DNA of 52,958 nt. Origin: a virus. Its lineage: Duplodnaviria > Heunggongvirae > Uroviricota > Caudoviricetes. Position numbers and translations under genes: made by a program. Location of the stretch: IMG/VR virus record IMGVR_UViG_2541047912_000003; one strand, given 5' to 3'. The notes below the pieces were generated by a model, which was not told the DNA's origin, ran no database searches, and saw only the letters and a list, made by a program, of their open reading frames with translations. Of the stretch, positions 386-26,098 are shown one piece after another. Within the stretch, counting starts at the first letter, position 1. Every line of letters begins with the position of its first letter.

Positions 386-397
386 TATTTCCTCCTT

Positions 398-2739: not shown

Positions 2740-2791
2740 TCCACAAATAAAAAAGGCGCCATTTCTGGCACCCGTATCTGGGTTATAAAAT

Positions 2792-6274: not shown

Positions 6275-6334
6275 TCGTCATGCTCCATAAACGATAAAAC
6301 CGCCCGGAGGCGGTTTCACATAAAACATTTTGCA

Positions 6335-7647: not shown

Positions 7648-7652
7648 GGGAT

Positions 7653-8351: not shown

Positions 8352-8680
8352 CAGATCACCACCTGTTCAAACTCTGCGCTGAACTCAACACGCAGCATAC
8401 TGACCCGCGACGACCATTTTGCGCAGGTCACCTTTATCTGCCGCCACTCATAAGGCGGCGTCCACAGAAAGGCTTTCCAGCCCCCGTGCTCAGCCAGAAA
8501 CGACTCCAGCGCCGTGGCCTCCCAACGGGGAACAGAAAGCGTCACGCTGTACGTTTTCAGGTCGGCATTCAGCCCGGCAGGCGCTCGCTGGGAATAGCCA
8601 TCACCAAAGCGCACTTTCCTGACGGAAGGGGCTGAAGCCACATCCATACCGGGTTTCACTTTCCAGCGGAAGGTCTTCAT
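8351..8680 (-). CDS. M: minor tail protein M
   Basis: 109 aa, matches lambda gpM; stop/start overlap with L. Confidence 0.95.
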   Translation of the reverse strand: MKTFRWKVKPGMDVASAPSVRKVRFGDGYSQRAPAGLNADLKTYSVTLSVPRWEATALESFLAEHGGWKAFLWTPPYEWRQIKVTCAKWSSRVSMLRVEFSAEFEQVVI

Positions 8681-11244
8681 CGTCCACCTCCGGAGAACAG
8701 ACCACCATCGCGCATCTGTGCCTGAATTTCATCACGGGCACCCTTGCGGGCCATGTCATACACTGCCTTCAGCATCTGTGGACCTGGCAGACCATTCGTA
8801 CCGTCGTTCTGAATCACCACGTTGTTGTTCTGCTCAAATCTGATACCCTCTGAACGCCGCATTTGCGCCGGACCTCCGGTGCCACCGACATAACCACCGG
8901 TGGCATAGCCGCGCATCAGCCGGTAAAGATTTCCTACGCCAATCCGGCTGGTTGCCTCCTTCGTGAAGACAAATTCACCACGGTGAACAATCCCCGCTGG
9001 CTCATATTTGCCGCCGGTTCCCGTAAATCCTCCGGTCGCAAAATGGAATTTCGCCGCAGCTGCCTGAATGGCTGTAACGCCTGACGCTGATGCGCCGCCG
9101 CCAATGGCGCTGCCGATACTTCCGACAATCCCCACCATTGCCTGCTTAAGCAGAATTTCTGTCATCATGGACAGCACGGAACGGGTGAAGCTGCGCCAGT
9201 TCTGCTCACTGCCGGTCAGCATCGCCGCCATATTCTGTGCAATGCCATCAAAGGTCTGCGTGGCAGCACTTTTTACCTGCGACATACTGTCCGTGGCGCT
9301 CTCTTCCCACTCACTCCAGCCGGACTTCAGGCCTGCCATCCAGCTCCCGCGAAGCTGGTCTTCAGCCGCCCAGGTCTTTTTCTGCTCTGACATGACGTTA
9401 TTCAGCGCCAGAGAATTATCGCCATACTGTTCCTTCAGGCGCTGTTCCGTGGCTTCCCGCGCTGCCTGCCGGTCAGTCAGCCCCCGGTTTTTTGCATCAA
9501 TGGCGGCCCGTTTTGCCCGTTGCTGCTGTGCGAATTTATCCGCCTGCTGTGCCAGCGCGTTCAGGTGCTCCTGATAGGTGACCTTGTCGCCAAGTGCAGC
9601 CAGCTGGCGTTTGTACTCCAGCGTCTCATCTTTATGCGCCAGCAGGGATTTCTCCTGTGCAGACAGCTGGCGACGTTGCGCCGCTTCCTCCAGTACCGCG
9701 AACTGACTCTCCGCCTTCCACAAATCCCGGCGCTGCTGGCTGATTTTCTCATTCGCTCCGGCATGCTTCTCCAGCGTCCGGAGTTCTGCCTGAAGCGTCA
9801 GCAGGGCGGCATGAGCACTGTCTTCCTGACGCTCTCCTGCAGACACCTTCACGCCGGACTGCTTCGGCTTTTTCAGTGTCGCTTCATAGTCCTTTTTCGC
9901 CGCCGCCATCAGCGTGTTGTAATCTGTCTGCAGGATTTTTCCGTCTTTCAGGGCCTTATTCAGTTCTTCCTGACGGGCGGTATATTTCTCCAGCGGCGTC
10001 TGCAGGCGTTCATAAGCCTTCTGCGCCTCTTCGGTATATTTCAGCCGTGATGCCTCAGACTCGGCCCAGTCCTTTGCTGCCATCTCTCTGGCCTTTTCAA
10101 GATCGGCCTGCAACGTGGCGGCTGAAAGCCCAAGTTGCGCATTCGCTCTGTCCTCCCATGCTCCCCGGAGATTAGCAAGAAATGCGGATGTTTTACCGCG
10201 CCGGTGGCTCCGGCTCTGATACCACTGCCATTTTTTGTCCGCCTCATCAAAAGCCTTTTCTGCTTTCTCCAGCATTTCCTGGGCTGTGTCCGGGCGACCA
10301 ATATCCAGCACCGAATCCCACATGGATTTGAATGCCCGCGCAGTCCTGTCTGCCCAGGTCTCCAGCGTGCCCATGTTCTCTTTCAGGCGGCGGGTCTGGT
10401 CATCAAACCCTTTCGTTGCGGCCTCGTTCGCTGCCTGCAATGCCCCGGCCTCATCGCCGGAACGCTGCAACTGAGCAACATACGCAATTTGCTCCGCCGT
10501 CACGTTATGGAACTGGCGCGCCATCGCCGTCAGCCCCGACGTCGGGTCAGTGGTCAGCTTCCCGAAGGCTTCAGCGACCTTGTCCACCTCCACGCCGGAT
10601 GCAGAGGAGAAACGCGCCACACTCTGGCTGATGGACGCAATCTGAGCCTCACCGCTTACCCCCGCCTTAACCAGTGCACTGAGTGACTCGCTGGTCTGGT
10701 TAAACGTCAGCCCTGCCGCCTGCCCGGCTCTGGACAGGACCAGCATACGATCTGCCGTCAGACCCGACTGATTACCGGAAAGGACCAGCGTTTTGTTGAA
10801 ATCGGACAGGGTTGAGTTACCCTGATACCAGGCATACGCCAGCGCACCGGTCGCCACCGCCAGCGAGGTGGCCCCGACCATCGGCAGGGTGATCGCACCG
10901 GCAAGCCCCCGGAACATGGGGATCATCCCGCCGAAGGAGTCCTTAACCTGACCACCCTGTTGCAGCAGGATCAGCCACGGACTTTGCCCGCCTGCAAGCT
11001 GCGTGGCCACGTCGGTGAACTGTGCAGGCAGCATACGCATGGCAGCTTTATACTGCCCGACGGAAATCCCCGCTTTCTGTGCAGCCAGCGCCTGCCGGTT
11101 CATCGACTGTTCAACGACTGCCGCTGTTTTTTTCGCATCAGTTTCCGTACCGGAAAAATGACGCCTGACTCTGGCCATCTGCTCGTCAAATCTGGCCGCA
11201 TCCAGACTTAAATCAACGACCAGATCGCCTACCGGTTCAGCCAT
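8677..11244 (-). CDS. H: tail tape measure protein H
   Basis: 855 aa, coiled-coil rich, Gly-rich C-terminus; size and position match lambda gpH. Confidence 0.95.
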   Translation of the reverse strand: MAEPVGDLVVDLSLDAARFDEQMARVRRHFSGTETDAKKTAAVVEQSMNRQALAAQKAGISVGQYKAAMRMLPAQFTDVATQLAGGQSPWLILLQQGGQVKDSFGGMIPMFRGLAGAITLPMVGATSLAVATGALAYAWYQGNSTLSDFNKTLVLSGNQSGLTADRMLVLSRAGQAAGLTFNQTSESLSALVKAGVSGEAQIASISQSVARFSSASGVEVDKVAEAFGKLTTDPTSGLTAMARQFHNVTAEQIAYVAQLQRSGDEAGALQAANEAATKGFDDQTRRLKENMGTLETWADRTARAFKSMWDSVLDIGRPDTAQEMLEKAEKAFDEADKKWQWYQSRSHRRGKTSAFLANLRGAWEDRANAQLGLSAATLQADLEKAREMAAKDWAESEASRLKYTEEAQKAYERLQTPLEKYTARQEELNKALKDGKILQTDYNTLMAAAKKDYEATLKKPKQSGVKVSAGERQEDSAHAALLTLQAELRTLEKHAGANEKISQQRRDLWKAESQFAVLEEAAQRRQLSAQEKSLLAHKDETLEYKRQLAALGDKVTYQEHLNALAQQADKFAQQQRAKRAAIDAKNRGLTDRQAAREATEQRLKEQYGDNSLALNNVMSEQKKTWAAEDQLRGSWMAGLKSGWSEWEESATDSMSQVKSAATQTFDGIAQNMAAMLTGSEQNWRSFTRSVLSMMTEILLKQAMVGIVGSIGSAIGGGASASGVTAIQAAAAKFHFATGGFTGTGGKYEPAGIVHRGEFVFTKEATSRIGVGNLYRLMRGYATGGYVGGTGGPAQMRRSEGIRFEQNNNVVIQNDGTNGLPGPQMLKAVYDMARKGARDEIQAQMRDGGLFSGGGR

Positions 11245-11671
11245 ACCGGACTCCTCCTGCGATCCCTTCTGATACTGTCATCAGCATTACGTCATCCTCC
11301 GTCATGCCCGTCACATCCGGGGAAGCGGGGATAACTTCATTCCCGTCCGGGTCAAAGCGGACGCCTCCGGCAAGCCCTGCCGCTTTCTGCATCAGCACAT
11401 CATCTTCAGGCTCTTCGTCAGCCTCACGCCGGTTCAGCAGACTGAAATCCAGCGGATGCATATCCGGATCGCTGAAAAACAGGCTGAGTACGGTGTACGT
11501 CAGCCCGGAAAAGTGCATATCCAGCAGAACATCATGAAAATAGTGGGTACTGTAAAAGCGGTGCCAGTCGGCATACTCCGTGGATGACATCCCGGCAAGC
11601 ATGGCGCGCCAGTCGGGTCGCCCCATCTCACGCGCCAGTTTCAGGGCAAAACTCAGCTCACCGTCGAACAC
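11237..11671 (-). CDS. T: T portion of tail assembly chaperone G-T (expressed by -1 frameshift from G)
   Basis: ORF in the -1 frame relative to G, overlapping the G 3' end; matches lambda gpT. Confidence 0.85.
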   Translation of the reverse strand: MFDGELSFALKLAREMGRPDWRAMLAGMSSTEYADWHRFYSTHYFHDVLLDMHFSGLTYTVLSLFFSDPDMHPLDFSLLNRREADEEPEDDVLMQKAAGLAGGVRFDPDGNEVIPASPDVTGMTEDDVMLMTVSEGIAGGVRYG

Positions 11672-12075
11672 TTTCCCGCAGAAACAGGCTCTGCAGGCCC
11701 GGCGTCCTCTGCCTGTTCAGGGGCATTATTCACCACAAACTCAGACATACCGGACAGCCGGTACACCACGTTTTCAGCATGAGAAATTGCCTCTGTGGGC
11801 CAGGTGGTAAGCACTTCCTGCTCAATCTGTTTAACGGCCTCATTCATGGACGGCATCTGCGTCTTCTTCGGATGGTTATGCCACAGGGACATCGCCACCA
11901 CAAAAGCACCGGTTCTGATGACGTCTTCCACAGTAACCTGCCGGTTGCTGTCTGACTCCGCCTGTTCTGCCTGCCGTTTCATCAGGGCAAGATGCTCAAT
12001 ACGCTGCAGGGCTGACAGTTCAGAAAGCGTGACGGTCACGCCGTTATGTTCAAATGATTCGGTTTTCAGGAACAT
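11653..12075 (-). CDS. G: tail assembly chaperone G
   Basis: 140 aa, matches lambda gpG; slippery heptamer near its 3' end. Confidence 0.9.
   Translation of the reverse strand: MFLKTESFEHNGVTVTLSELSALQRIEHLALMKRQAEQAESDSNRQVTVEDVIRTGAFVVAMSLWHNHPKKTQMPSMNEAVKQIEQEVLTTWPTEAISHAENVVYRLSGMSEFVVNNAPEQAEDAGPAEPVSAGKCSTVS
11671..11677 (-). other. programmed -1 ribosomal frameshift slippery site GGGAAAG (G to G-T fusion)
   Basis: Plus strand reads ctttccc at 11671-11677, i.e. GGGAAAG on the coding strand, about 5 codons before the G stop, as in lambda. Confidence 0.8.
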
Positions 12076-12090
12076 CGCTGACTCTCCGGA

Positions 12091-12831
12091 TTAACTGGCG
12101 GTGACGGTGATTTCTGCAACCGCAGCAAACTCACCATTACCGGATACAACCGGAATGTTGACCCTGCCTGCAGCAACGCCGTTCACGGTGATGGTCATAC
12201 CACTGACCGACACGGTGGCTTTTGTTTTATCCGCAGACACCGCACGGAAGCTCTTGTCGGTTGCGCCTTCCGGCTGGAATGCCACGGTCAGCGTCGTGCT
12301 CTGCCCTTTCACCACCGAGGTGCTGGCAGGCGTCACGGTCATGCCGGTTGCCGCTGTGACCGTGCTGCGATCTTCTGCCATCGACGGGCGTCCCACATTG
12401 GTGACCTTCACCGTGCGGGTGATCACTTCCTTCGCCGTCACCGCTTTACCGATACTGCTGACCCAGCCACGGAACACATCGACCGTGCCGTTCGGGAAGC
12501 GGATTTTATAGGCACGGGTATCACCTTCATTAAACCACGCCAGCAGCGCCTGCTGCCCCTGTTCTCCGGGCATCCACGCCAGCGTGAAGCTGGTATCTCC
12601 GGCTGATTTCTGCCCCTGCCCGGTCGCAGTCCAGTCCGCATCTTCATCATCGAGATAGCTGTCGTCATAGGACTCAGCGGTCAGTTCGCCGGGCGTCAGG
12701 TCTTTAACTTTTGCCAGACGCGACCAGTCCACGTCTGAAAGCGGGTTCGCATAAGGGTCACCGTTCCCCTTATAAACCCACAGTGTGGTCCCGGCACCTT
12801 TCACCGGCATTGTAGGATTTGGTACAGGCAT
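12091..12831 (-). CDS. V: major tail tube protein V with C-terminal Ig-like domain
   Basis: Sequence from [20 protein letters not shown] matches lambda gpV (246 aa); the supplied ORF extends 10 codons further upstream. Confidence 0.9.
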
Positions 12832-12838
12832 ATCGTCC

Positions 12839-13234
12839 TCACATTTCATAGGTAATGACATAAGTCAGATCGGCTGAACTCCACAGGCCCGCATCATCGT
12901 CGCGTCGGTAGTCATAGCCACTGGCCACCATACTGGTGATCAAATCTGACAGTGCCGGGATATCGCTCATCACCGGATAAATCCGGGACTCCATCCACGA
13001 ATCCAGCGCTGAATCCGGCACCTGAGCAGGCAGGAAAACTTCAATATGCAGCTCCGCCTGCCAGGTATCGCTGTCCAGCTCTTCGCCCGTGTATTCAGCG
13101 CCGGTGAGATAAACGGCAATTGCCGGAAAATCCGCCTCATCAAAAACAGCGGGGCGACCATCAAAAAGCGTCGCCCCGGTGTCATATTTTTCCAGTGCAT
13201 CCAGTACGGCTGCACGGAGTTCAGTATGTTTCAT
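12839..13234 (-). CDS. U: tail tube terminator protein U
   Basis: 131 aa, matches lambda gpU. Confidence 0.95.
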
Positions 13235-13809
13235 CGCTTTATTACCATCCTCAGTTGATGCTGCAGCGCATAGCCCAGCTCTTTCGGAAGACGCTCACGC
13301 CGTATCCGCTCAATATTCTGTTTAAACGCCGTGGTCAGCGGCACCGCCATCGGAATTTTCACCACATCAATGGGGTAACGGTTTTTCCCGGCCACACGCT
13401 GCATGACATGCCAGCGGCCATTTTTCAGTTGCTGAATAAACGCGCCGGGAATACGACGGTTTCCCACCACAAGCACGCTGCCGCCACCTTTCAGGGATGA
13501 ACGCTGCCCCTTTTTACGACGCCTGCGTCGGGACAGGACAACCCGCGCGTTACCCAGCCTGATTACGGGCAAATCCCCCCGGTTAACTTTGATTCTGGCC
13601 TGCGGATTTTTGACTGTGGCCCTTTTCAGCCTGGCCCTTTCCTTTACCAGTTTCCGGCGTACCTTTGTCTCACGGGCAACCTGTGCCACCGACTGCGATA
13701 TCGCGGATGAAGCAACGCGGTTAATGGCCATTGCGGCGGCACCGGGCACCGCCGTTCTGCTGATACGGCTGAGGTTTTCAACGGCCTGCTCAAGACCTTT
13801 TATGGCCAT
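13231..13809 (-). CDS. Z: tail completion protein Z
   Basis: 192 aa, matches lambda gpZ (Arg-rich central region). Confidence 0.95.
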   Translation of the reverse strand: MAIKGLEQAVENLSRISRTAVPGAAAMAINRVASSAISQSVAQVARETKVRRKLVKERARLKRATVKNPQARIKVNRGDLPVIRLGNARVVLSRRRRRKKGQRSSLKGGGSVLVVGNRRIPGAFIQQLKNGRWHVMQRVAGKNRYPIDVVKIPMAVPLTTAFKQNIERIRRERLPKELGYALQHQLRMVIKR

Positions 13810-13820
13810 ACATCCCCCTT

Positions 13821-14174
13821 TCAGCGGCGACGGTTAACGGCAGGCGGTACGCCCCGCCCAAGCCAGAGATGACAGCTTCCGCCATCATCCGGCGAAATCC
13901 GGTCTATCCAGAAGTTTTCCTCACCGATGGTCAGCGTGTCGCCGCGCCGCAGCTGCCGCACATCATCAGTCCGGACAAACAGGGACGGGCTGGAGCCTTC
14001 AACGCGCACGCCCTGTCCGGCATAGCTGATATTTTCAGGGTCATCAAAAACACCACGTATCACAGCACCGGACTGCTCACCGGATGTCATGGTGGCTGAC
14101 GTTCCCATGTACCCGCGTATCGTTTCATCGGCGCAGGCAATGGCAGCATCGAACAGGTTATCGAAATCAGCCAC
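13821..14174 (-). CDS. FII: head-tail joining protein FII
   Basis: 117 aa, matches lambda gpFII. Confidence 0.95.
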   Translation of the reverse strand: MADFDNLFDAAIACADETIRGYMGTSATMTSGEQSGAVIRGVFDDPENISYAGQGVRVEGSSPSLFVRTDDVRQLRRGDTLTIGEENFWIDRISPDDGGSCHLWLGRGVPPAVNRRR

Positions 14175-14185
14175 AGCGCCTCCCG

Positions 14186-14581
14186 TTATTGTATTCTGGC
14201 CAGGCCGCGCTCTGTCATTTCAGCTGCCACACCGGCAGAGACACGGAACGCCGTTCCCGGCAGCACAAATGCCACAGCCTCATCCCGCGTGGCGTGAAGT
14301 GCATCAGTATGCAGCGTCACCAGTGCCACAACCGTGACCAGATCAGCCGTATCAGTCACGGTATCCGGCTGCGCTGATACAACCTCATTTTCATGTCCGG
14401 TCAGCACATTTTCCGGGCTGAGAGGGATATCCTGACCGGCAGTGTTGCCCGTGTCATCAAGCTCTTCTTCCAGTTCTGCCACACGGAGCGCCAGTTCTTC
14501 TTTCGTCCCCGTCAGGCTGATATCACGGTTCAGTTGTTCACCCAGCGAGCGGAGACGGGCAATCAGTTCATCTTTCGTCAT
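14186..14581 (-). CDS. FI: DNA packaging / head completion protein FI
   Basis: Sequence from MTKDELIARLRSLGEQL matches lambda gpFI (132 aa); the supplied ORF has a 13-codon upstream extension. Confidence 0.9.
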   Translation of the reverse strand: MTKDELIARLRSLGEQLNRDISLTGTKEELALRVAELEEELDDTGNTAGQDIPLSPENVLTGHENEVVSAQPDTVTDTADLVTVVALVTLHTDALHATRDEAVAFVLPGTAFRVSAGVAAEMTERGLARIQ

Positions 14582-14622
14582 GGACTCCTCCACAGAGAAA
14601 CAATGGCCCCGAAGGGCCATGA

Positions 14623-15412
14623 TTACGCCAGTTGTACAGACACGAACTCATCAGGGTCAGCCAGCAGCATCAGCGGTGCTGACTGAATCATGGTGAACTC
14701 ACGCGCCGGGTCGCCGGTGGTCACCCAGTTTTTCGGGTAACGGGCAGAGGCGTTAATGCCTTCGCGCTGTGCGTCCGCATCCTGAATGCAACCATAGGTG
14801 CGCAGACCGCGTGCCTGAGTGTTCCCCAGCACCATCGTGTTGTCCGGCAGGAAGTTCTTTTTGACGCCGTTTTCCACGTACTGTCCGGAATACACGACGA
14901 TGGCCACATCGCCATACATTCCCTTATAAGACACCGCTTTGCCCAGGTCTTTTACCGCTGTCTCCAGCTCGGAATGAGAGCCGCGACGGGTATCCAGCTT
15001 CTCCTTGACGGCTTTGAAGGAACGGAACAGCGCCCAGCCTTTCGGATCAAACACGATGATATTCACCACACCGCTGGCGTTCAGCGCGTAGGCTTCGATA
15101 TCGTCGGTCGGGTCATACGTGGACTTGTCACGCTTGCTCCACTCCGTGCCGCCGGACTGCGTGATGTTATTCGCCTCACTGCGGCCCATATCCACCTCAA
15201 CCGGATCGAAGGCTTCACCGGTCATGGTATATTTGCCCTTAAGCACGGCAGAAACTGCCTGCATCTCTTCGACCTGGGCAATCGCCAGATTTTCATCCAG
15301 CATATTCTGCCGAATAATACGGCGACGACGGTAAGCCGGGTCAGCCAGGTTCTGCGGATCTTCATCCGGCAGGCGACGCAGGGTCATCTGCGGATTCACC
15401 TCATGCTTGGGT
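14623..15412 (-). pseudogene. E: major capsid protein E, C-terminal ~260 codons, separated from its 5' part by a 10.7-kb insertion
   Basis: Translation PKHEVNPQMTLRRLPDEDPQ...FVSVQLA is collinear with lambda gpE from about residue 83 to the end; preceded in frame by a stop at the insertion junction. Confidence 0.9.
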
Positions 15413-15413
15413 T
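15404..15413. repeat. left copy of 10-bp direct repeat tgcttgggtt (putative att core, attL side)
   Basis: Identical 10-mer at 26130-26139; both lie exactly at the break in E. Confidence 0.7.
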
Positions 15414-15620
15414 ACATGAGTCAAATAGAAAAAAGATACTTGATTTAACAGAGATTTATTTTATAAATGAGAGGGTGCAGAATTACGTAGCAATACATGC
15501 TGCAATACATGGTTAGGGAAAAGCCTTCTTGGCATCGTACAAAAAACAAACCGAATTTTTTCTAACACAGCCAAGTAAAGCCTCCTTCACTTAATTAGTT
15601 AAATTATAAAGGAATATTCA

Positions 15621-16763
15621 ATGAAAATTTTTCTTGCTCATGCAAAAGAAGATGAAACGATAACTGAAGAAATCTATGAAAGGCTAAAAAGTGGAGGATA
15701 TTCCCCTTGGATGGATGTAAAAGATATACCCGCTGGCGTAAACTGGGATTATGAAATCCAAAAAAACTTCGCTAATTCAAACTTGATAATCCTTATCCTT
15801 AGCAAAGTGAGCACTCAGAAAAATGGTTATATTCGCCGCGAAATAAATGACGCCATTGATAAACTAAAGTATTACAAACCAGATGATGTGTTCGTGATAC
15901 CATTACTTATTGATGATTGCGAAGTACCCGCCTACATATCAAGCAAGCTCCAATTCATTGATTTTAAGAGAAATGATGGTTGGGACATTTTATCTAGATC
16001 TTTAAGATTAGCAGCATCGCAACAAAAACTTGAAATATCTCAAGGTATCACTTATGGGCCATTTAACTTTAGCAGCGAGGTTTTCAAGGAAGAATATAAC
16101 AAGATCCCAGGGCATGAAATTGAAATAGCATATCCAAGAATTGAAAGCCATACATTACCGAAATCAGCAAAACTCATTAGTGATTACTTTTCAGGAAAAG
16201 CGGCTTTACATATTTTTTCTGAACGCACATCACTATGGCCAGGAACACCATATTGGGATGAAGAATATAAACACACTTACACTAGTTCCTATAATGAAAG
16301 TTATAACATCTCATACTGTAACGAAAATGTTATGAGCATCCTTCATTCCGTACATTGGTATGGTGCGGGAGCAGCACACCCTAACAGTCATTTTGAAACT
16401 AGTAATTTCGTAATAACCAAGGATGACTACGCATACAAATTTAGTTTATGGGATGTATTTACCGAAGGGAAAGAGCAAGAAGCGATTAATAAGATAAAAC
16501 AAAAAATAATCTCTGAATCAGCTCGTGAATTTTGGGAGAAAACTGGTGAAAAACCAAGTGAGGACGACATTAGTACGTTTGCAACGGGTATCATGGATAG
16601 TAACTTAGACTCGTTCACAATAAATAGTGATGGATTTAGATTCCATTTTGCACCTTACGAAATTCATGCATATGCTTTTGGTTCTTGGGAATTCTTTATC
16701 TCATTCTTTGAAGTAATAGACTTCCTTAAAGAGGATGGAATTTACTCTCTAATAAGGAGTTAA
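15621..16763 (+). CDS. TIR-domain protein (380 aa) with ~250-aa C-terminal domain of unknown function; candidate defence/abortive-infection effector
   Basis: N-terminal ~120 aa (KIFLAHAKEDE, ILILSKVS, candidate catalytic Glu in RREINDA, VIPLLIDDCEVP) fit the bacterial TIR fold; AT-rich codon usage unlike flanking DNA; strong RBS aaggaa; C-terminal WYGAGAAHP motif loosely resembles the GGAH motif of DUF3298/RsiV-type domains (unverified). Confidence 0.7.
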   Translation: MKIFLAHAKEDETITEEIYERLKSGGYSPWMDVKDIPAGVNWDYEIQKNFANSNLIILILSKVSTQKNGYIRREINDAIDKLKYYKPDDVFVIPLLIDDCEVPAYISSKLQFIDFKRNDGWDILSRSLRLAASQQKLEISQGITYGPFNFSSEVFKEEYNKIPGHEIEIAYPRIESHTLPKSAKLISDYFSGKAALHIFSERTSLWPGTPYWDEEYKHTYTSSYNESYNISYCNENVMSILHSVHWYGAGAAHPNSHFETSNFVITKDDYAYKFSLWDVFTEGKEQEAINKIKQKIISESAREFWEKTGEKPSEDDISTFATGIMDSNLDSFTINSDGFRFHFAPYEIHAYAFGSWEFFISFFEVIDFLKEDGIYSLIRS

Positions 16764-17129
16764 CATTTCAATAAGCCTGAAATTTAATCAGGCTTATATA
16801 CATTTCCTTATGATTAAATTATTGCTGTTCTTAAGCAAAGATGCAGCCAGAAGTAATTCCCCCTCAAGCTTGCTTGCACACATAAAGAACTGACACAAAA
16901 CTCTGCTGTAAAGTTGTCTAGCCACACAGCAAAAAACATATGAAACTTTGTTATTCGCAAACTGCTTGCTCTATATTCCACCATCAAGGCGCATAAAGCA
17001 ATTGCAATGGCGCAGAAGTAGGCCATAACTATGAAGTGAAGCTAGCGGCGCGTTATTGGCCGCTTCTGAATAGGGCCTGATTCAACTCAGGGATAAGATT
17101 TTTTCTGGTGATAGACCGCGACGGATGGC

Positions 17130-17330
17130 AACAAAACCAGAGAAAGGAAACGACAGAGGCCAAAAAGCCTGTTTTTAGCACCTGTCGTTTCCTTTCTTTT
17201 TAGGGGGTGTTTTTAATAAAAACATTAAGTTACGGCGAAGAAGAACGGAAACGCCTTAAACAGGAAAATTTTCACAAATAGCAAAAAACTGCGCGCCTGA
17301 CGCCCCGTAGCCTGTCAGATCGCCGGAAAG
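17130..17330. other. satellite cos site (cosQ-cosN-cosB-like), paralogous to the prophage cos
   Basis: About 200 bp roughly 90% identical to 32340-32540 (aggaaacgacag, cacctgtcgtttcctttc, ttacggcgaagaagaacggaaacgcc blocks) in the same orientation; cosN-equivalent 12-mer at 17295-17306 (gcctgacgcccc) differs from the prophage's. Confidence 0.75.
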
Positions 17331-17361
17331 GACCCGCCAGCCAGAGCGGGCCCTAATTTCA

Positions 17362-17745
17362 TCAACCAATCAGCTTATAGCGACCATCCCGTGCATTGCG
17401 GCGTACACGCTCAATCTTGAGGCATAGCGCCGCATCTGGCTTTTTTGGGACAGGTACGCGGCAATATTCAGAAGCGCGAGGAATATTATTTATCCAGTCG
17501 ATCACTTCACTTAAATACCAGGCCTTACGCCCTTCCGTAACCTGCACACGCTCCGGGAACTCTCCACTAGCCTCAAGGTTTAGCAGTGTACGCCGACTCA
17601 GGGTTGTAATTTCCATCACCTGATTCATATCAACAAGGCGCTCGCTTAAACACATTTTGTCAGCGATAGCTTTTAATTCCTCTACAGCTGGATTCGGGTA
17701 CATCATTTCGGCAAGTGGCTTAAGGTCATTGTAATCATTCTGCAT
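17362..17745 (-). CDS. HTH protein (127 aa; AlpA/MerR-like winged helix), adjacent to satellite cos; possible packaging-redirection or regulatory protein
   Basis: C-terminal half (EITTLSRRTLLNLEASGEFPERVQVTEGRKAWYLSEVIDWI) resembles AlpA-type HTH and the Nu1 DNA-binding fold; strong RBS; last gene of the capsid operon next to cos. Confidence 0.5.
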   Translation of the reverse strand: MQNDYNDLKPLAEMMYPNPAVEELKAIADKMCLSERLVDMNQVMEITTLSRRTLLNLEASGEFPERVQVTEGRKAWYLSEVIDWINNIPRASEYCRVPVPKKPDAALCLKIERVRRNARDGRYKLIG

Positions 17746-17756
17746 TGTATCCCCCT

Positions 17757-18098
17757 TTACACACGAGCCAGCGGCTGAACAGAAATACCTGAGCCAACAA
17801 ACGCTGCAATCTTTACTGACAGTTCTTTTACAGACTCAGGCCAGTTCAGAGCATCAACATTTAAGACACCTGTCTTATAGACCTGAGCCTGTGTTTTTTT
17901 CGCGGTGTCGATTTGTACAGCGGAAACATAAACCGCTTTACCTACGCTCGAACCATCCCATACCACCAGTGCACCTGTTGCATCTTCCTGCATCAGTGGC
18001 GTAAATGCAGGAATTACCCCTTTATTAGCTGAAAATATCCCCAGCGTAGTCACCAGTGCTTCAGTGCCAGCCATGAGTTCAGTGTAATGAGTAGCCAT
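17757..18098 (-). CDS. head decoration protein (lambda D paralogue) encoded by the satellite
   Basis: 113 aa; shares the PLM...VVWDG...YKTG...WPE pattern with lambda gpD (26430-26762) but is divergent; strong RBS. Confidence 0.7.
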   Translation of the reverse strand: MATHYTELMAGTEALVTTLGIFSANKGVIPAFTPLMQEDATGALVVWDGSSVGKAVYVSAVQIDTAKKTQAQVYKTGVLNVDALNWPESVKELSVKIAAFVGSGISVQPLARV

Positions 18099-18107
18099 TG
18101 CTCCCCC

Positions 18108-19148
18108 TTAGCCAATGCGAACGGTAACAAAACGATTGATGCGGGCCGGTATTGGCTGTGGTGCTGAATGTGTCTGCACATATTCAATAGCCGGATCACC
18201 AGGCACAATATAGTTTTTCGGTGCAAGTTCGGCTTTAGTCAGCCCCATTCGGATTAGCTCCGGATCCTGAATACCGCCATAGGCGACAATCCCCTGAAGA
18301 GCCGTATTGCCAAGCACCATCAAATCAGGATCAAGGAAATGTTTTTCAGTTCCGTCCTCGTCGGTATAACGCCCGCTGTATACAACAATCGCAACATCGC
18401 CCATATACCCTTTAAAACTCACCGAATCACCAAGGTCTTTAAGGGCCGTTTCCAGTTCGGAATTAGAACCACGACGGGTATCCAGAGCCTCTTTTATCGC
18501 TCTGAATGAACGGTATTTCTTCCATACATTACCGCCCATAATGATGATATTAGTGACGCCCTCACTAAATTCTGCGTAGCTCTCAATATCATCATTTGGA
18601 TCAAAAGTTTCTTTATCCTTACCTGACCACTCAGTACCGCCAGACTGAGTGATGATATTTTGTGGTTTTATATTCCAGTCCAGCTCATAACGTTCAATAC
18701 CATCGCCCTCAATGATATTTTTCCCCGTTGTGATTGCCTGAACGGCAAGCCATTCAATACGTGCACGAATAGCTTTAGCCTGATTTACAATCGCCTGTTT
18801 AACTTTAATATTACGCGCTCCAAAAGCATTGTATTGCTCAGGTGATACACCAGCAGGGCGCACAGCTAACTTATTTGGATCAATGCTGCTTTTCGGCTTC
18901 ATATAGCCTGGACGAATTGTTTTTGATTCGTACCCTTCGTCACGTGAAACTTTACTACCTACCATAGGAGAACAAAACGCTGCAATTGGGATATTTGGAT
19001 CGTCGATTGTATCAAGAATAATATCGCGCGATTCAAACATTACCGAACGAGTAAAAAACAAACTGGTAAACAACGCATTTAGTTGTTTTTGTACATCTAC
19101 AGCATTAACCACCTGTACAAGCTGGGTAGGCGAATATAAATCAACCAT
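18108..19148 (-). CDS. major capsid protein (lambda E paralogue) encoded by the satellite
   Basis: C-terminal two thirds about 50% identical to lambda gpE (ITQSGGTEWS, DTRRGSNSELETA, YMGDVAIVVYSG); likely start at MVDLYSPTQ with AGAGGA RBS; the supplied ORF is extended upstream. Confidence 0.8.
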   Translation of the reverse strand: MVDLYSPTQLVQVVNAVDVQKQLNALFTSLFFTRSVMFESRDIILDTIDDPNIPIAAFCSPMVGSKVSRDEGYESKTIRPGYMKPKSSIDPNKLAVRPAGVSPEQYNAFGARNIKVKQAIVNQAKAIRARIEWLAVQAITTGKNIIEGDGIERYELDWNIKPQNIITQSGGTEWSGKDKETFDPNDDIESYAEFSEGVTNIIIMGGNVWKKYRSFRAIKEALDTRRGSNSELETALKDLGDSVSFKGYMGDVAIVVYSGRYTDEDGTEKHFLDPDLMVLGNTALQGIVAYGGIQDPELIRMGLTKAELAPKNYIVPGDPAIEYVQTHSAPQPIPARINRFVTVRIG

Positions 19149-19365
19149 ACGCATCCTCTTTGCATTCATTAAAAATAATTGTGGATATATGCTATCACCG
19201 ATATTTGTCATGCGAATACATGCAACCGAGTGCAATGTTGTATAAAGTTTTGGGATAACAACTCCAGCGCGGATAATTAGTGTTAATATCTTCACTCCCT
19301 TTGGTCGGGATTTATGTAGCATGCCGGAAAATTTATTTTTTTCCGGCCTTTTTTATTGGCAATAT

Positions 19366-19815
19366 TTAAAACGGAATATCATCTCCCCATTGCTCATTAT
19401 CTCCCACTGGTGGATGGCTTCCTTGCTGATCTGCCTGTTGTTTTGCTCTGTTCAGTGCGTCAGTAGCCTGACCCTGTTGACCTTTTTTGCCGCCCGGTCG
19501 CACCGTTCGCGCACTGATTACGCTGTCTGCGATAACCTGCCAGCCCTGCCGCGTTTCACCGTTCTGTCCAGTCCACTGGCTCACCTGCATATTACCCGCC
19601 ACGCTCAGGAGTTCGCCTTTGTGATGCTTTGCCAGCGCGTCGGCTTGTCTGCCAAACGCCAGGACAGATAACCACATCGTCGCCTGACCGTCATCCGACT
19701 GACTGCAGGGCAGTGATACCGCCATACGCGCCAGCGTCATGGGGGTGCCCTTGCTGGTCTGTTTTGTCTGCGGGTCGTCCACCAACCGCCCGTAAACTGA
19801 TATTTGCGCCGTCAT
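19366..19815 (-). CDS. ssb: single-stranded DNA-binding protein
   Basis: 149 aa, OB-fold-like N-terminus, Gly/Gln-rich linker and C-terminal acidic tip DDIPF; RBS present. Confidence 0.85.
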   Translation of the reverse strand: MTAQISVYGRLVDDPQTKQTSKGTPMTLARMAVSLPCSQSDDGQATMWLSVLAFGRQADALAKHHKGELLSVAGNMQVSQWTGQNGETRQGWQVIADSVISARTVRPGGKKGQQGQATDALNRAKQQADQQGSHPPVGDNEQWGDDIPF

Positions 19816-20057
19816 GCTGCCTGCTCTCCGGACTTAATATTGATTGTTGTCACTTCCTCCGCTTCAGCAATCTCCCGTTCGGTCAGAGTGGCAAAGTTTG
19901 CAGCCGCCGTTGTCATGAATGCGCTAATCAGTTCGGGATGTGCTTTCGCGTATCCTTCCCCGGCGTTGCGGTCGATGATTTTTATCGACACCCTTAACCA
20001 GTGTTCCGTCAAATCAAGGGCGTGCGATTGTGATTTTTTTGTGTGCTTCGCTGTCAT
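19812..20057 (-). CDS. hypothetical protein (81 aa), translationally coupled to ssb
   Basis: Stop overlaps the ssb start (ATGA); immediately downstream of the iteron region. Confidence 0.5.
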   Translation of the reverse strand: MTAKHTKKSQSHALDLTEHWLRVSIKIIDRNAGEGYAKAHPELISAFMTTAAANFATLTEREIAEAEEVTTINIKSGEQAA

Positions 20058-20099
20058 AGGCTTTATCTCACAGCAGTAAATTAAAATTTTTGCGTTTTA

Positions 20100-20335
20100 A
20101 CCCTTCACCTGTTCACCTTTTGATATTTTCTCTTTTAATTCATAATGTTAATGGGTGAACAGTTTCACAAAAACTATTCACCAACTGTTCACCACTGTTC
20201 ACCCTTGAAGCTCAATAAACAATCAAAAAGGTGAACAGTGAATAGTTTGGTGAACAGTTCATAAATAACTGTTCACCCTATAATATACTGATATAAAAGA
20301 TATTTATGACAGGGTGAACAGTGGTGAACAGTTAT
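20100..20335. repeat. iteron cluster (about 10 copies of TGTTCACC / GGTGAACAG in both orientations); putative satellite replication origin
   Basis: Motif recurs throughout 20103-20330 in an AT-rich context, immediately downstream of the primase-helicase gene. Confidence 0.75.
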
Positions 20336-20344
20336 TCCATAAGT

Positions 20345-22165
20345 TTAATTTTTGCTATCGTCATTAGTGACCGATACACATGATGGCATCCAGTCTTCTG
20401 ATTCCTCCGTCAGGGTCACGTTTGAACGCAAACCGTGCTTCGTTTTCCGTTTCATATACTCCCTGCCATATTCCGCCATTGCCCCCGGCATATCTTTACC
20501 GAAGCGCGTCAGTGTTACAGGTTTACCAAACCCATGTGCCCTCATATAAGCCAGATAGGCATGATAGAGATACCTGCGTGGGCTGAATGGCACAATTTCA
20601 GCATTACCCACTAACAGGCCATCACACATTACCGATGCCATGAGATAACCGCAGAAGTCCACCAGCGAATCCCCCTCTCGCTTTATCGCCAGTGCTTCTT
20701 CAGATTTCTGCTGCTCATATAACAGGCGTCTGGCTTCGTCCTGATCAGCAAACCTTGTAAGCAGATGACGAATCACTACCGCCAGCTCACCTTCTATTTT
20801 TTCCGCCAGCATCGAATCGCGTTCGTTCTCCGGTACAACTTCCGAAAAATTGAATATCACCCGACGACGTGAGATCCCCCCGCTGCGGTCACTGAATGAC
20901 ATGGCGTTATTGTTAACCGCCAGCACTACTGCCGGAATACGCGTTGAATAGGGGGCTTTGTGTTTCGGGTCAATTGCCACCTTGTCACCGCCTGTAATGG
21001 CCTTAATCCCTGCCCCATCACCAGCGTAGCGGGTCATATCCGGCATGATAATCAGCGAAAAGCCAACCACTAACGCACGTTCCCTTGCATCTTCCAGCGC
21101 CTTCATGCTTGCTGATACTGTATTAGCCTTACCCGCCAGCATGGTGCAAATCTCCGCCATCACACTTTTACCACTTCCCCCCGGCCCTGTTACCTCAATG
21201 AATAACTGCCAGTCGTACCGGTTCGCCAGCACCATGAATAATGCCGCCAGTACGCGATCTGCCTTGCGGTCATTCTCAGCCACCGAACGGCGCAACCACT
21301 TCCAGAAATTCGGCGCATGTGTTGCCAGCGTTTCCCCCTCTGCTGGTGGGCTGAAAGGTAATTCACTGGCAATTAACAACCAGTCGTTTTTGTTATGCTC
21401 CCGAAAATTACCAGTTCTGGTATCAAATACCCCGTTACTGAATCCAATCAGGTTACGGGCTGTATTCCCCATTACAGGCAAACTTAACTTCATGGTATCT
21501 ACCGCCGATTTAATAGCGTTCTGCGAATAGCTGATCTCCGCATCAATGAAAATCTGCGCCATAGCACGCTGTAACTCTTTATCCTGAACCGGCTCCCATA
21601 CAACGCCGTTGTAATGATGAACGGTGTCAGAGTCGGCATTGATTGCCAGTTCGCCGCCGTAATGTGCAAGGAGAACTTCACCGCGCTGGCTGGCCCCCAT
21701 CTGATTCAACGCCAAAGATGAAGCACGCTCGTCATTTTTGCGCTCAGCCTTCTTCACTGGCAGTTCAATCACCAGACTTTCCCCATGCTCCGCTTCAGCT
21801 TTTAGGCCGACAAGGCGCGGAGTCCAGTCTTCAGGCTCTCGATCAACAAAGCTACGGTAACAACGTGCTTCCTTTACGCCTGCAATAGCAAGTAATGTCG
21901 CAACCTTCGTCAGATTTTTCTCTGCAATCTTTCCGGCACGATAAACACGCACATAATGACGGCCTTCATCGATAATTTGCATATCATCCAGGTTTTCCAG
22001 TTGTTCCGTACCCAGAATTACTGGTGGTGTATCATCTGCTGCAATATGCTTACCCGCCCATTCATTCCATTCTTTTGCATGGCTCCAGGCATCACTGCCA
22101 GCAAAAATGATGACTTCTGTCATTTTGTCGCGCGGTTGGTATTTTAAGTTCGGAGCACGTTTCAT
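20345..22165 (-). CDS. replication primase-helicase (P4/PICI-type, P-loop NTPase)
   Basis: 606 aa with Walker A GPGGSGKS and downstream Walker B-like hydrophobic-acidic stretch; GGAGG RBS; adjacent iteron origin. Confidence 0.8.
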   Translation of the reverse strand: MKRAPNLKYQPRDKMTEVIIFAGSDAWSHAKEWNEWAGKHIAADDTPPVILGTEQLENLDDMQIIDEGRHYVRVYRAGKIAEKNLTKVATLLAIAGVKEARCYRSFVDREPEDWTPRLVGLKAEAEHGESLVIELPVKKAERKNDERASSLALNQMGASQRGEVLLAHYGGELAINADSDTVHHYNGVVWEPVQDKELQRAMAQIFIDAEISYSQNAIKSAVDTMKLSLPVMGNTARNLIGFSNGVFDTRTGNFREHNKNDWLLIASELPFSPPAEGETLATHAPNFWKWLRRSVAENDRKADRVLAALFMVLANRYDWQLFIEVTGPGGSGKSVMAEICTMLAGKANTVSASMKALEDARERALVVGFSLIIMPDMTRYAGDGAGIKAITGGDKVAIDPKHKAPYSTRIPAVVLAVNNNAMSFSDRSGGISRRRVIFNFSEVVPENERDSMLAEKIEGELAVVIRHLLTRFADQDEARRLLYEQQKSEEALAIKREGDSLVDFCGYLMASVMCDGLLVGNAEIVPFSPRRYLYHAYLAYMRAHGFGKPVTLTRFGKDMPGAMAEYGREYMKRKTKHGLRSNVTLTEESEDWMPSCVSVTNDDSKN

Positions 22166-22449
22166 TTATTACCTCCGGCAACTAACATTGCCCGAATTTT
22201 GCGGATATAGCCTGCGGCACGCCTCTGATTATCTGTCTTGCAATTTTTTACCAGAATGAAATCTCTTTCGAACTGCTGACGCGGCATAACACATTCAAAA
22301 TCATAACCATCACGCAAATAAGAGACACGGCGATCATCAACCGAAATAATCTTTACCCGATAGCCATAGCTATCTTTGAAAATATCCCCAAGGCTGATTT
22401 TTGAATGAGCTTGACCGCTGGCAATAAAGCCAGAAAATTTATTTTTCAT
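22162..22449 (-). CDS. hypothetical protein (95 aa) in the satellite replication operon
   Basis: RBS GGAGAA; stop overlaps the primase start. Confidence 0.5.
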   Translation of the reverse strand: MKNKFSGFIASGQAHSKISLGDIFKDSYGYRVKIISVDDRRVSYLRDGYDFECVMPRQQFERDFILVKNCKTDNQRRAAGYIRKIRAMLVAGGNK

Positions 22450-22451
22450 TT

Positions 22452-22676
22452 TTATTCTCCGGTATAGCTCTGGTCGTGTATTTTTATAGCTTCATCCAGC
22501 TCTTTGATGACAGGATCAAGTAACGTAATTAACGCTCCAGCTAAATTAGCATCCCGTTCATCGTGTTCCGCATTTGTTGTCCCATCAAGCCAGGTTGATA
22601 AGATTTCTCGCATATTTTTGCCACAAACGAGCGCGTTTTCAGCATGTGTCAGCACTTTAAAATAAAGATCATTCAT
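22452..22676 (-). CDS. hypothetical protein (74 aa) in the satellite replication operon
   Basis: RBS GGAGG 7 nt upstream; tightly packed with neighbours. Confidence 0.5.
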   Translation of the reverse strand: MNDLYFKVLTHAENALVCGKNMREILSTWLDGTTNAEHDERDANLAGALITLLDPVIKELDEAIKIHDQSYTGE

Positions 22677-23034
22677 GGCACACCTCCTGACGAATACGGG
22701 CGGCGAATATCATCACGCAGCCAGTTGGGGATTGCTGGCGGGCTTCCTGTTCGCTGGTGGCCTCGATGGTAATCACGCGCGGTTGTGTCGTACTCAGGGC
22801 GATAAAACGCCAGAGGAAATTGTTTTCACATTTCTGAATAAACAGCGTGTTTTCTTCCCGCCCTTTCCAGAAAGCCGCAGTATAGCCCATCTCCTTAACC
22901 ATCTTGCGGGCATCAACCAGCGTGTCAGCGGCTACATGTACCGTAGTTGCTCCATCTGCTATGCGATCGCGATGTAGCGCCAGAAAGATGTATATAAATT
23001 TAGGGTGAGTTTGGGTATGCTGTGTTCCAGCCAT
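22669..23034 (-). CDS. hypothetical protein (121 aa), first gene of the minus-strand satellite operon
   Basis: Internal Met of the 304-aa supplied ORF with GAGG RBS; the upstream extension is Ser/Arg-rich and overlaps a convincing plus-strand gene. Confidence 0.5.
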   Translation of the reverse strand: MAGTQHTQTHPKFIYIFLALHRDRIADGATTVHVAADTLVDARKMVKEMGYTAAFWKGREENTLFIQKCENNFLWRFIALSTTQPRVITIEATSEQEARQQSPTGCVMIFAARIRQEVCHE

Positions 23035-23039
23035 AATCG

Positions 23040-23240
23040 TTACCTCGTTTAACGGTTTGGTTAGAAGCCCGGTTAGTGTTCGCGCACTGCCGGGTTTCGT
23101 CGTTTTTATGAATCGATCATTGTGAGATACATAGCGACCATAATGTGAGATATACATTATATTGTGGTGATATACATTGCAAGTGTTTTTATATCTCACT
23201 TTTGTGTATAGTGATATACACATAACAAATTGGTGATTAA
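23040..23240. promoter_or_regulatory. divergent promoter/operator region of the satellite with repeated TGAGATA(T)ACAT-like motifs
   Basis: Several copies of gtgagatacat / gtgagatatacat / gtgatatacat between divergent genes at 23034 (minus) and 23243 (plus). Confidence 0.5.
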
Positions 23241-23242
23241 CT

Positions 23243-23545
23243 ATGTCTGTATACAAAAATGCAAAATCGCAAATGACAACGATCAGGGTTCCCCACGATG
23301 TTATGGAGGGCATGGAATCCGTAAAACTGGACGGCGAAAGCAACGCCGGATTCATAGTAACCGCCATGCGCGGTGAGATCGCCCGCCGCCAGGCAGAAGG
23401 AAGCGGAGAAAATCCCCTCGTGTCTTCACTGGATGCCTTAGCTAAGGTCGAACAAATCGGCATCAAGGCAGCGGAGGAAATCGGGCAACTCGTAGCCGTC
23501 GCTCGTGAAGAACTCCAGCGGCGTAAAGCCAAAGAATCTGAATAA
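23243..23545 (+). CDS. hypothetical regulator (100 aa), divergently transcribed from the satellite replication operon
   Basis: Charged, helix-rich protein adjacent to the operator repeats; position expected for a satellite repressor; no family recognised. Confidence 0.5.
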   Translation: MSVYKNAKSQMTTIRVPHDVMEGMESVKLDGESNAGFIVTAMRGEIARRQAEGSGENPLVSSLDALAKVEQIGIKAAEEIGQLVAVAREELQRRKAKESE

Positions 23546-23895
23546 TTAGTATCAGCGCCGTGATGTGAGTAACTACGGCGCATTGCTATGTAAATACTGG
23601 CAATAAACAGAAAAGGTAGTTCTACTCCGAATAATTTTATCTGACACTACTCCTAAACTAACATGCGCTTATCTTACAGGATATAAATATAAATCCATAA
23701 AATCACGATTAAATAAAGTCGCTCCAAATATAAACCACACCCAACGCTTAACAAGATAGCAACAAACAGATAAATAACTTGCAGAAATATTTATCGCAAG
23801 GATTATCATTATTAATGACAAATCACTTTACCAAGTCATTCCCCTCTCTTATCATAAAGAGAAAGTAATAAATAAGTTAAGGGAGTTAGAATGCT

Positions 23896-24432
23896 ATGAA
23901 TCTAAAAAAAATAGCCACAAACACAAAAAACAAGATAACAGAAACATTCAATAAACTTATATTAGAGGCATCTAAAACCCCCACACAAGATGAAATTAAA
24001 ATACTTGAGAGAAGGAGTAAGAAGTTTAATTACTCCTTTTTCTCATACGCAGTCACAGGAGCTATAATAGTTTTTTGCTCTCAACCATTAATAAAATACG
24101 CAAACCCAATACTTATTTTATTGAGTGGCCTGCTATTGTCTCTCACCATTATCCACCTCAGAATTCTTTATATTTCACAAACAAATAGATCATGGACAAA
24201 AAATAAAAAAACTGCATATATTATTTTAATTTTATCTGTATGTTTCCTAGCGTCAACATTGACGTTGCTATATCAGGCTTACGATAATAACATCACACAC
24301 AAATTGTACTGTAAAAATATACAACAACTTATTGAAAAAAGGATAGAAACAGAAAAAAACATCAGCATATTCAGTGGAATGCAATGCACCCCGGTATATG
24401 ATTACTCTTTATTTGGATTTAATCTCTTATAA
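23896..24432 (+). CDS. AT-rich integral membrane protein (178 aa, about 3-4 TM segments); cargo gene of the satellite
   Basis: Hydrophobic segments (AVTGAIIVFCSQPLI, ILILLSGLLLSLTIIHL, AYIILILSVCFLASTLTLL); very AT-rich relative to neighbours. Confidence 0.55.
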   Translation: MNLKKIATNTKNKITETFNKLILEASKTPTQDEIKILERRSKKFNYSFFSYAVTGAIIVFCSQPLIKYANPILILLSGLLLSLTIIHLRILYISQTNRSWTKNKKTAYIILILSVCFLASTLTLLYQAYDNNITHKLYCKNIQQLIEKRIETEKNISIFSGMQCTPVYDYSLFGFNLL

Positions 24433-24440
24433 AGAATGTT

Positions 24441-24476
24441 ATTACTGATTTGAGTACAAATTCTCAAATCAGTAAT
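24441..24476. terminator. perfect 14-bp inverted repeat hairpin between convergent genes (likely bidirectional terminator)
   Basis: attactgatttgag / ctcaaatcagtaat arms with 8-nt loop, followed by a T-rich tract. Confidence 0.6.
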
Positions 24477-24501
24477 TCATAATATTTTATTCTGAGATAA
24501 T

Positions 24502-24738
24502 TTAAACTACCCACTCACCTCGAATCCATGCCTGCACTTCTGAAAGACGATATGCAACAGCAGTGGAACCAATCTTGATCCGCTTAGGAAATTTTCCTTC
24601 CTTCTCCAGCTTCCAGCGTGTGCTGTTCGCAAGAGTGGTTAGCTCCCGACATTCTTTCTCACGGATCATTCGGTCAATGTTAGGAATGTACTCCAGACCC
24701 TTTTTATCAACAATTGCCATTTTTTTCATGTTAACCAA
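24502..24738 (-). CDS. alpA: AlpA-family excisionase/transcriptional regulator
   Basis: 78 aa, HTH (ELTTLANSTRWKLEKEGKFPKRIKIGSTAVAYRLSEVQAWI) typical of AlpA/Xis; immediately downstream of int. Confidence 0.8.
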   Translation of the reverse strand: MVNMKKMAIVDKKGLEYIPNIDRMIREKECRELTTLANSTRWKLEKEGKFPKRIKIGSTAVAYRLSEVQAWIRGEWVV

Positions 24739-25966: not shown

Positions 25967-26098
25967 TTTTAGCCCCAAAAAGCAATACAAGCTGCAATAC
26001 AGAGATGATTGCAACACACAGATAACGAGGAAAATTCAGTGAAAGCGCCAGATAAATTTATTCTTTATTATCAAAAGATTAAGTGTAAAAACCAGCAA

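Follow-up and report, generated by a model that had tools for sequence, protein, structure and literature searches.

A helper-type cos site with a different cosN in a satellite embedded in a lambda-like prophage

The satellite and its helper prophage

The stretch of DNA that we analysed, 52,958 nt from IMG/VR record IMGVR_UViG_2541047912_000003 (hereafter the window), carries a lambda-like helper prophage on the minus strand, with the genes for Nu1, then gpA, B, C and D, tail genes at 1-15400 and a lambda-type integrase gene (a 380-aa ORF, 51816) at the window end. The small terminase subunit of this prophage is identical to lambda Nu1 at 180 of 181 positions. The gene for its major capsid protein, E, is interrupted after codon 82 by a 10,726-bp satellite, with the N-terminal 82 codons ending at 26130 and the rest of the gene resuming at 15399 (Table 1). 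The 380-aa ORFs at 15621 and 51816 were considered as repeated copies of an IS element and rejected as such, as they are unrelated, one being the TIR cargo gene of the satellite and the other the lambda-type integrase of the helper. Within the prophage, between the Q-like and lysis regions, there is also a porin gene (36901-37983, plus strand; Pfam Porin_1, 2e-151), a placement that resembles that of nmpC/ompC-like genes in other lambdoid prophages and that recurs in the same arrangement in the icd prophage of CFT073.

The satellite lies inside one of the helper's late genes, co-oriented with it and bordered by a short att identity block, which is the arrangement of a PICI of the helper-embedded type (HE-PICI) as described by Tommasini, Mageeney & Williams 2023 (PMC10111431), whose model is the pair 11capE/50icd of E. 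coli NRG857c. Its genes are ordered int, 78-aa AlpA, 304-aa repressor-like, DUF4222, D5 primase, SSB, E-like, D-like, 127-aa AlpA-family, cos and TIR+DUF3298, and they fit the HE-PICI succession of Integration (int and alpA), Bro/regulation, Replication (primase and SSB) and Late (capsid genes) zones. The Bro zone holds the gene of the 304-aa repressor-like protein (22669-23583, minus strand), whose last 50 residues match phage repressor families in PHROGs, and a divergently oriented gene (23896-24432, plus strand) for a 178-aa predicted membrane protein with no family match. The E-like protein has an N-terminal extension of ~60 aa, and the E-like and D-like proteins share only ~41-46% protein identity with helper E and D. 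Cargo varies between elements in a hotspot that lies between cosB and attL, with TIR+DUF3298 here and DUF2971, DUF262+HEPN, abortive-infection or restriction genes in relatives (L001 and L216-L221).

Over 84% of its length the satellite is 99.3% identical to 11capE (NC_017634.1), with which it shares the integration site in gene E, the 10-bp identity block and the gene order. Strain 21KM1392, another carrier, gives a 100% match. The cos of 11capE (L221) is also like that of the window satellite in carrying GGGCGTCAGGCG against a lambda-type helper cosN. The two elements differ in cargo, which is DUF262/HEPN in 11capE and TIR+DUF3298 in the window, and in a Nu1-like terS remnant that is present in 11capE and fully deleted here. 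Excision and replication have been shown for 11capE, and a 258-bp sequence of 90% identity shared with its helper at the cos position was reported, but the word cosN has 0 occurrences in that paper and the cosN difference is absent from it (PMC10111431).

Table 1. Features of the satellite and of the helper prophage in the window
Feature	Position	Strand	Remarks
Helper E, C-terminal fragment	14623-15399	-	resumes PKHEVNPQ...
Satellite, helper-embedded PICI of 11capE type, 10,726 bp	15414-26139	-	10-bp att core TGCTTGGGTT at 15404-15413 and 26130-26139
Cargo gene, TIR + DUF3298, 380 aa	15621-16763	+	slot that holds Nu1-like terS and other defence genes in relatives
Satellite cos site	17130-17336	-	equals lambda -31 to +176 (cosQ through R1)
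Satellite R1, TerS site	17141-17156	-	CTGTCGTTTCCTTTCT, same in helper; homology stops ~20 nt beyond
Satellite R2, TerS site, inverted relative to R1 and R3	17182-17197	-	16-mer AGAAAGGAAACGACAG, same in helper; from inverted-repeat search
Satellite R3-R2 spacer with IHF site I1	17198-17240	-	length same as in helper; 2 mismatches in 38 nt
Satellite R3, critical TerS (Nu1) binding site, lambda bp 50-65	17241-17256	-	AGGCGTTTCCGTTCTT, 16/16 as in helper and lambda
Satellite cosN, cohesive-end sequence	17294-17305	-	allele 5'-GGGCGTCAGGCG; helper GGGCGGCGACCT; nick positions predicted
Satellite cosQ heptamer GGGTCCT	17329-17335	-	sequence and 23-nt spacing to nick same as in helper; also as in lambda
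127-aa AlpA-family wHTH protein	17362-17745	-	last gene of satellite late operon; judged not to be a cosN adaptor
Satellite D-like decoration protein, 113 aa	17757-18098	-	
Satellite E-like major capsid protein, 404 aa	18108-19322	-	
Satellite canonical AlpA, 78 aa	24502-24738	-	
Satellite integrase	24731-26017	-	
Helper E, N-terminal fragment	26099-26374	-	ends ...KPKH
Helper terminase large subunit gpA (TerL), 641 aa	29885-31810	-	
Helper terminase small subunit Nu1 (TerS), 181 aa	31785-32330	-	Pfam Phage_Nu1 9e-101; PDB 6hn7_B, 1j9i
Helper prophage cos	32344-32550	-	lambda-type cosN GGGCGGCGACCT at 32508-32519

The cos sites of satellite and helper

A repeat search found just two direct repeats of at least 40 nt in the window, one of which pairs 17131-17345 with 32345-32559 at 88% identity and was also aligned with MAFFT. 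Trimmed to lambda numbering -31 to +176 (17130-17336 and 32344-32550) it is a direct repeat of 207 nt with 22 mismatches, no indels and 89.4% identity, in agreement with the first-pass annotation, which had given a same-orientation alignment of ~90% between 17130-17330 and 32340-32540. The two cos sites of the embedded composite stand in direct order, and the distance between them is 15.2 kb in one direction and at least 37.7 kb in the other. The homology begins at cosQ and stops just past R1, and because the loci are unrelated beyond these borders on both sides, the homologous block is exactly the functional cos from cosQ to R1.

Comparison of the subsites showed no mismatch between satellite and helper in cosQ (0/7), R3 (0/16) and R1 (0/18), one at the edge of R2 (1/19), whose 16-bp core is identical, and five in cosN (5/12). 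The similarity covers the Nu1-binding R sites, the span from cosN to R1 contains no indels relative to the helper, and cosB is laid out as R3, IHF site, inverted R2 and R1. Judged by its sequence, the satellite site is a complete lambda-type cos, with cosQ, cosN, R3, the I1 spacer, R2 and R1. The first-pass annotation had read it as a helper-type packaging signal that could yield different cohesive ends, and the sequence supports this: both the sequence and the spacing of the R sites, of the IHF spacer and of cosQ have been kept, and the overhang would differ from that of the helper at five positions. The coordinates given here for R2, R1 and I1 rest partly on the general layout of lambda cos. 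The R3 coordinates, a further part of the placement of I1 and the role of cosQ in termination are from PMC9026076.

The five differences in cosN fall at positions 6, 8, 9, 10 and 12 (GGGCGTCAGGCG in the satellite versus GGGCGGCGACCT in the helper), and the hypergeometric probability that five of the 22 mismatches lie within those 7 nt is 1.6e-4. Positions 1-5, 7 and 11 are kept, as is the flanking CG on each side. On the plus strand the aligned 12-mers are cgcctgacgccc in the satellite (17294-17305) and aggtcgccgccc in the helper (32508-32519); that the two cores differ had been noted in the first pass with the correct helper sequence, although its satellite sequence, gcctgacgcccc, was one base out of register. 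The two predicted satellite ends (5'-GGGCGTCAGGCG) are complementary to each other but match the helper ends at only 7 of 12 positions, and with so limited a match satellite-helper hybrid molecules should cyclise poorly. The predicted overhang duplex energies are -18.7 and -19.0 kcal/mol for the cognate pairs and -9.1 and -9.3 kcal/mol for the satellite-helper hybrid.

There is no terS behind the satellite cos, and cargo follows where the homology ends after R1 (in lambda, terS starts ~190 bp from the left end). On the other side, the stop codon of the 127-aa gene is separated from cosQ by a 24-nt stretch (17336-17361; GGGCCCGCTCTGGCTGGCGGGTCC) that is conserved in 92 IMG/VR loci and that includes a short inverted repeat, CCCGC...GCGGG, overlapping cosQ. 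An Rfam scan of the whole window gave no family at the gathering score, and a promoter and terminator scan around the satellite cos gave nothing exceeding the shuffle expectation.

cosN alleles in lambda-like phages and in satellites

Natural cosN variation has reportedly been surveyed by Vahanian et al. 2017 (Virology 509:140). Differences in bp 7-12 of cosN are common among lambda-like phages, and right-half variants are nicked efficiently by lambda TerL, since the enzyme is positioned by TerS that is bound at R3 (Feiss et al. 2015, PMC4669245). In the same work bottom-strand nicking was insensitive to sequence with TerS at R3, the cosN change G2C was harmful and C11G neutral, and a 2-nt mismatch between cohesive ends cut the viable yield ~4-fold. 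TerL has likewise been described as an enzyme of low sequence specificity that is positioned by TerS at R3 (Murialdo & Feiss 2022, PMC9026076). G2 and C11 are both present in the satellite allele, which also keeps the left half and the CG on either flank. Among N15, gifsy-1 and mEp213/LLS the same TerL works on different cosN alleles, and we propose likewise for the satellite, although the published lambda-like variants differ at 2-3 positions whereas the satellite differs at five, position 6 included, and its allele, unlike the natural variants of lambda-like phages, is carried mostly by satellites.

An IMG/VR-wide scan with the 17-mer around the satellite cosN returned 61 loci, mostly satellites; five of the loci (L009, L015, L027, L042 and one more) were set aside as chance matches in unrelated GC-rich DNA. 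Four prophage cos sites on uncultivated contigs carry GGGCGTCAGGCG (L013, L050, L061 and L023), and in the three loci that extend far enough (L013, L050 and L061) the genes that come next encode Nu1 and gpA with 99-100% identity to those of the window helper. The neighbours of L050 were surveyed over ~7 kb downstream of cos, where no satellite genes were found, and this locus has an apparently full-length match to an E-type capsid gene. Across the lambda-type cos sites of IMG/VR and GenBank (L104-L215), phages with gpA ~99% identical use at least three cosN alleles, namely GGGCGGCGACCT (~87%), GGGCGGAAGGCG (~10%) and, rarely, GGGCGTCAGGCG. Of the two variant alleles only GGGCGGAAGGCG, and not GGGCGTCAGGCG, was seen in an isolated phage, PhiR46_1; it is also present in YDC107_1, and gpA is 99% identical to that of the window helper. 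In a comparison of 52 full-length gpA sequences, none of the residues was associated with a particular cosN allele. An R3-anchored scan found GGGCGTCAGGCG in none of 103 newly fetched phage cos sites, and the IMG/VR-wide scan found it in 4 sites in a phage context. Haplotypes of the spacer between cosQ and cosN are common to different cosN alleles, which indicates recombination around cosN.

The relatives of the satellite fall into three classes. One has a lambda cosB and a Nu1-like terS whose product is 72% identical to that of the helper and which is often a pseudogene; another has a lambda cosB with the Nu1-like terS truncated or deleted, as in the window; the third has a different cosB together with a chimeric TerS, made of a new N-terminal domain and a Nu1-type C terminus. 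The Nu1-like TerS that many relatives encode directly after cosB (L001, 4181-4732; L216-L218, 16750-17301; L220 and L221, 16750-16944) has the same DNA-binding half as that of the helper and a divergent C-terminal half. Its gene is intact in some relatives and interrupted by internal stops in others; in 11capE it has been shortened to 64 aa, and the window satellite has lost it by deletion.

For the allele counts, satellites were retrieved by their flank alone. All 45 flank-retrieved sites with a lambda-type cosB carry GGGCGTCAGGCG. In 36 of them, which represent 25 haplotypes, cosN shows no variation, its five distinguishing positions included, and the functional subsites show little, whereas differences in both flanks reach to within 4-5 nt of cosN. 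Where sister satellites encode a chimeric TerS of their own and have another cosB, the lambda cosN is present in 35 of 50 cases and GGGCGTCAGGCG in 9 of 50. Fisher's test of cosB type against cosN allele gives p ~2e-18, a value uncorrected for shared descent, and the satellite counts are not independent because the satellites are close relatives. The pattern of satellite flank, lambda cosN and R3 was found in neither IMG/VR nor metagenomes (0 matches), where the variant pattern occurs 19 times and 3 times, respectively. A BLAST search of 5,426 E. coli genomes with a synthetic query joining satellite flank, lambda cosN and lambda cosB gave no full-length match above 96.3%, which is only suggestive by itself in view of the variation among spacer haplotypes. 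Each of the 11 satellite/helper pairs in which cosB is of the lambda type, 11capE/50icd included, has a helper with the lambda cosN, as follows from the rarity of GGGCGTCAGGCG in phages. Together these counts show an association of the shared helper cosB with the phage-rare GGGCGTCAGGCG that seems complete among the sampled satellites and undescribed. It could have arisen either because the satellites inherited a cos module that was captured once or because incompatible ends were selected for.

Packaging of the satellite and alternative readings

We consider it probable that 17130-17336 is the working packaging site of this 11capE-family satellite and that it is cut by the unmodified helper terminase with no adaptor needed. 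The satellite would excise and replicate, as 11capE does, and helper Nu1 would then bind the unchanged R sites together with host IHF and so position helper gpA on the satellite cosN, where it would introduce nicks 12 bp apart. By analogy with EcCICFT073, packaging would begin at the cosB side and end with the cutting of a later cosQ/cosN, and four satellite units of 10.7 kb (42.9 kb) would fill a lambda-sized head. At least three alleles of the right half of cosN, that of the satellite among them, occur naturally in combination with what is essentially one gpA, and therefore no adaptor need be invoked. Helper Nu1, IHF and gpA thus most likely cut the satellite cos directly, and the predicted products are ends unable to pair with those of the helper.

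It had been suggested in the first pass that the altered cosN might need a specificity adaptor and that the adjacent HTH protein could be it, the helper terminase being unable to cut this cosN unaided. The 127-aa HTH ORF exists as described, throughout this satellite family its gene is the one immediately upstream of cosQ, and AlpA, Xis, MerR and the Nu1 DNA-binding domain all have winged HTH folds. The Rpp precedent also shows that satellites can retarget TerS (PMC6739421). The protein itself, however, matches Pfam PF05930 at 35.8 bits (gathering cut-off 21), its family profile matches the AlpA of PDB 8c3t at 3.5e-13, and neither the protein nor the profile has any detectable Rpp or TerS similarity in PDB even at E = 10; an AlphaFold2 model from a 32-sequence alignment (mean pLDDT 58, pTM 0.32) was too poor for fold searching. 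Near-identical versions of it (up to 99% identity, median 94%) occur in sister satellites whose cosN is of the lambda type. Moreover, Rpp acts on cosB and not on cosN, and rpp lies downstream of cos, whereas the 127-aa gene is on the cosQ side and not on the terS/rpp gene side. Nor would the terminase require an adaptor, given the prophages described above that pair GGGCGTCAGGCG with unchanged Nu1 and gpA, among them L050 with no satellite genes nearby, the lack of any allele-tracking residue in the 52 gpA sequences and the tolerance of TerL to right-half changes (PMC4669245). We regard retargeting by this protein as extremely unlikely, and the adaptor hypothesis can be dropped. Much the same view, if marginally less severe, applies to the site being a decaying relic that the cosN changes have inactivated, with the satellite spreading passively in the prophage or by other routes, which we judge very unlikely. 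Such decay would fit the difference at 5 of the 12 cosN bases, the expected virions of helper 50icd, which Tommasini et al. could not detect for the model element (PMC10111431), and the Nu1-like terS, which is decaying across the satellite family through internal stops, truncation and, as in the window, deletion. But random decay would not have spared a monomorphic cosN and conserved cosQ, R3, R1 and spacing over 25 haplotypes, GGGCGTCAGGCG is also found in prophage cos sites, and the satellite site still has those bases whose importance is established (G2, the left half and the flanking CG).

The cosN difference might also be a selected insulation device, by which a satellite that shares the TerS sites of its helper keeps non-complementary sticky ends, so that a molecule cut at the satellite cos at one end and at the helper cos at the other cannot cyclise. 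The embedded composite, with its two cos sites in direct order, could give rise to such molecules, and on this reading a satellite that has a cosB and a TerS of its own would have no need of the device. The invariance of GGGCGTCAGGCG in the 45 flank-defined sites despite polymorphism close to cosN argues for this, as do the predominance of the lambda cosN in the own-TerS sisters, the missing combination of satellite flank, lambda cosN and R3, the scarcity of GGGCGTCAGGCG in phages and the uniform lambda cosN of the paired helpers. The same picture would result, however, if a cosN-cosB-terS block had been captured just once from a GGGCGTCAGGCG-bearing phage; the counts are not independent, and the pair data add nothing past the rarity of the allele in phages. 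Five mismatches in 7 nt may also block gene conversion across cosN and so act as a neutral barrier, and we found no clear fitness benefit to the satellite in killing hybrid molecules. Selection of this kind is in our estimate unlikely. We hold as similarly doubtful the general rule that it would imply, namely that the cos of a satellite of lambda-like phages has to differ from that of the helper in one module, in cosB where the satellite has its own TerS or Rpp and in cosN where it uses the TerS of the helper, as a selected insulation between genomes that are in cis when embedded.

On the reading that we prefer, direct cutting by the helper terminase, the satellite can be compared with known systems. 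In P4 with P2/186 and in SaPIbov5 a helper-type cos on a small replicon is packaged by the unmodified helper terminase, as proposed here, but these elements are described as carrying the helper cos as such, whereas the overhang of the window satellite is not complementary to that of its helper. EcCICFT073 (Fillol-Salom 2018, 2019; Murialdo & Feiss 2022) is, like the satellite, a Gram-negative PICI using a lambda-type terminase, with a late zone that ends in capsid-like and decoration-like genes followed by cos; the gene in the slot upstream of cos that is equivalent to the 127-aa gene is unrelated and shows no homology. Its cos1 keeps cosQ and the lambda cosN (GGGCGGCGACCT) and has an unrelated cosB read by an Rpp-TerS heterodimer, of which the window satellite is a mirror image, with the helper cosB kept, a different cosN and rpp absent. 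Redirection of the Rpp type thus does not describe the satellite, as its cosB is that of the helper and no Rpp (a wHTH protein of 139-154 aa) lies downstream of its cos, there being no credible ORF between R1 and the cargo gene.

The satellite element, its copy of cos, the variation of the right half of cosN and the tolerance of lambda TerL were already known. What seems to be unreported is that the model HE-PICI and its relatives would make cohesive ends unable to pair with those of the helper. If the association of cosB and cosN is selected, it would be a second route, besides retargeting by Rpp/TerS, by which the packaging substrate of a satellite is separated from that of its helper.

Among the relatives with a non-lambda cosB in IMG/VR (L063, L097, L103 and others), a protein of 170-180 aa is encoded ~145-175 nt downstream of cosN. 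It was considered as an Rpp and rejected, as it has the C-terminal part of Phage_Nu1 and no Rpp match in PDB; it is the chimeric TerS, in which a novel N-terminal domain is fused to the TerL-binding C-terminal part of Phage_Nu1.
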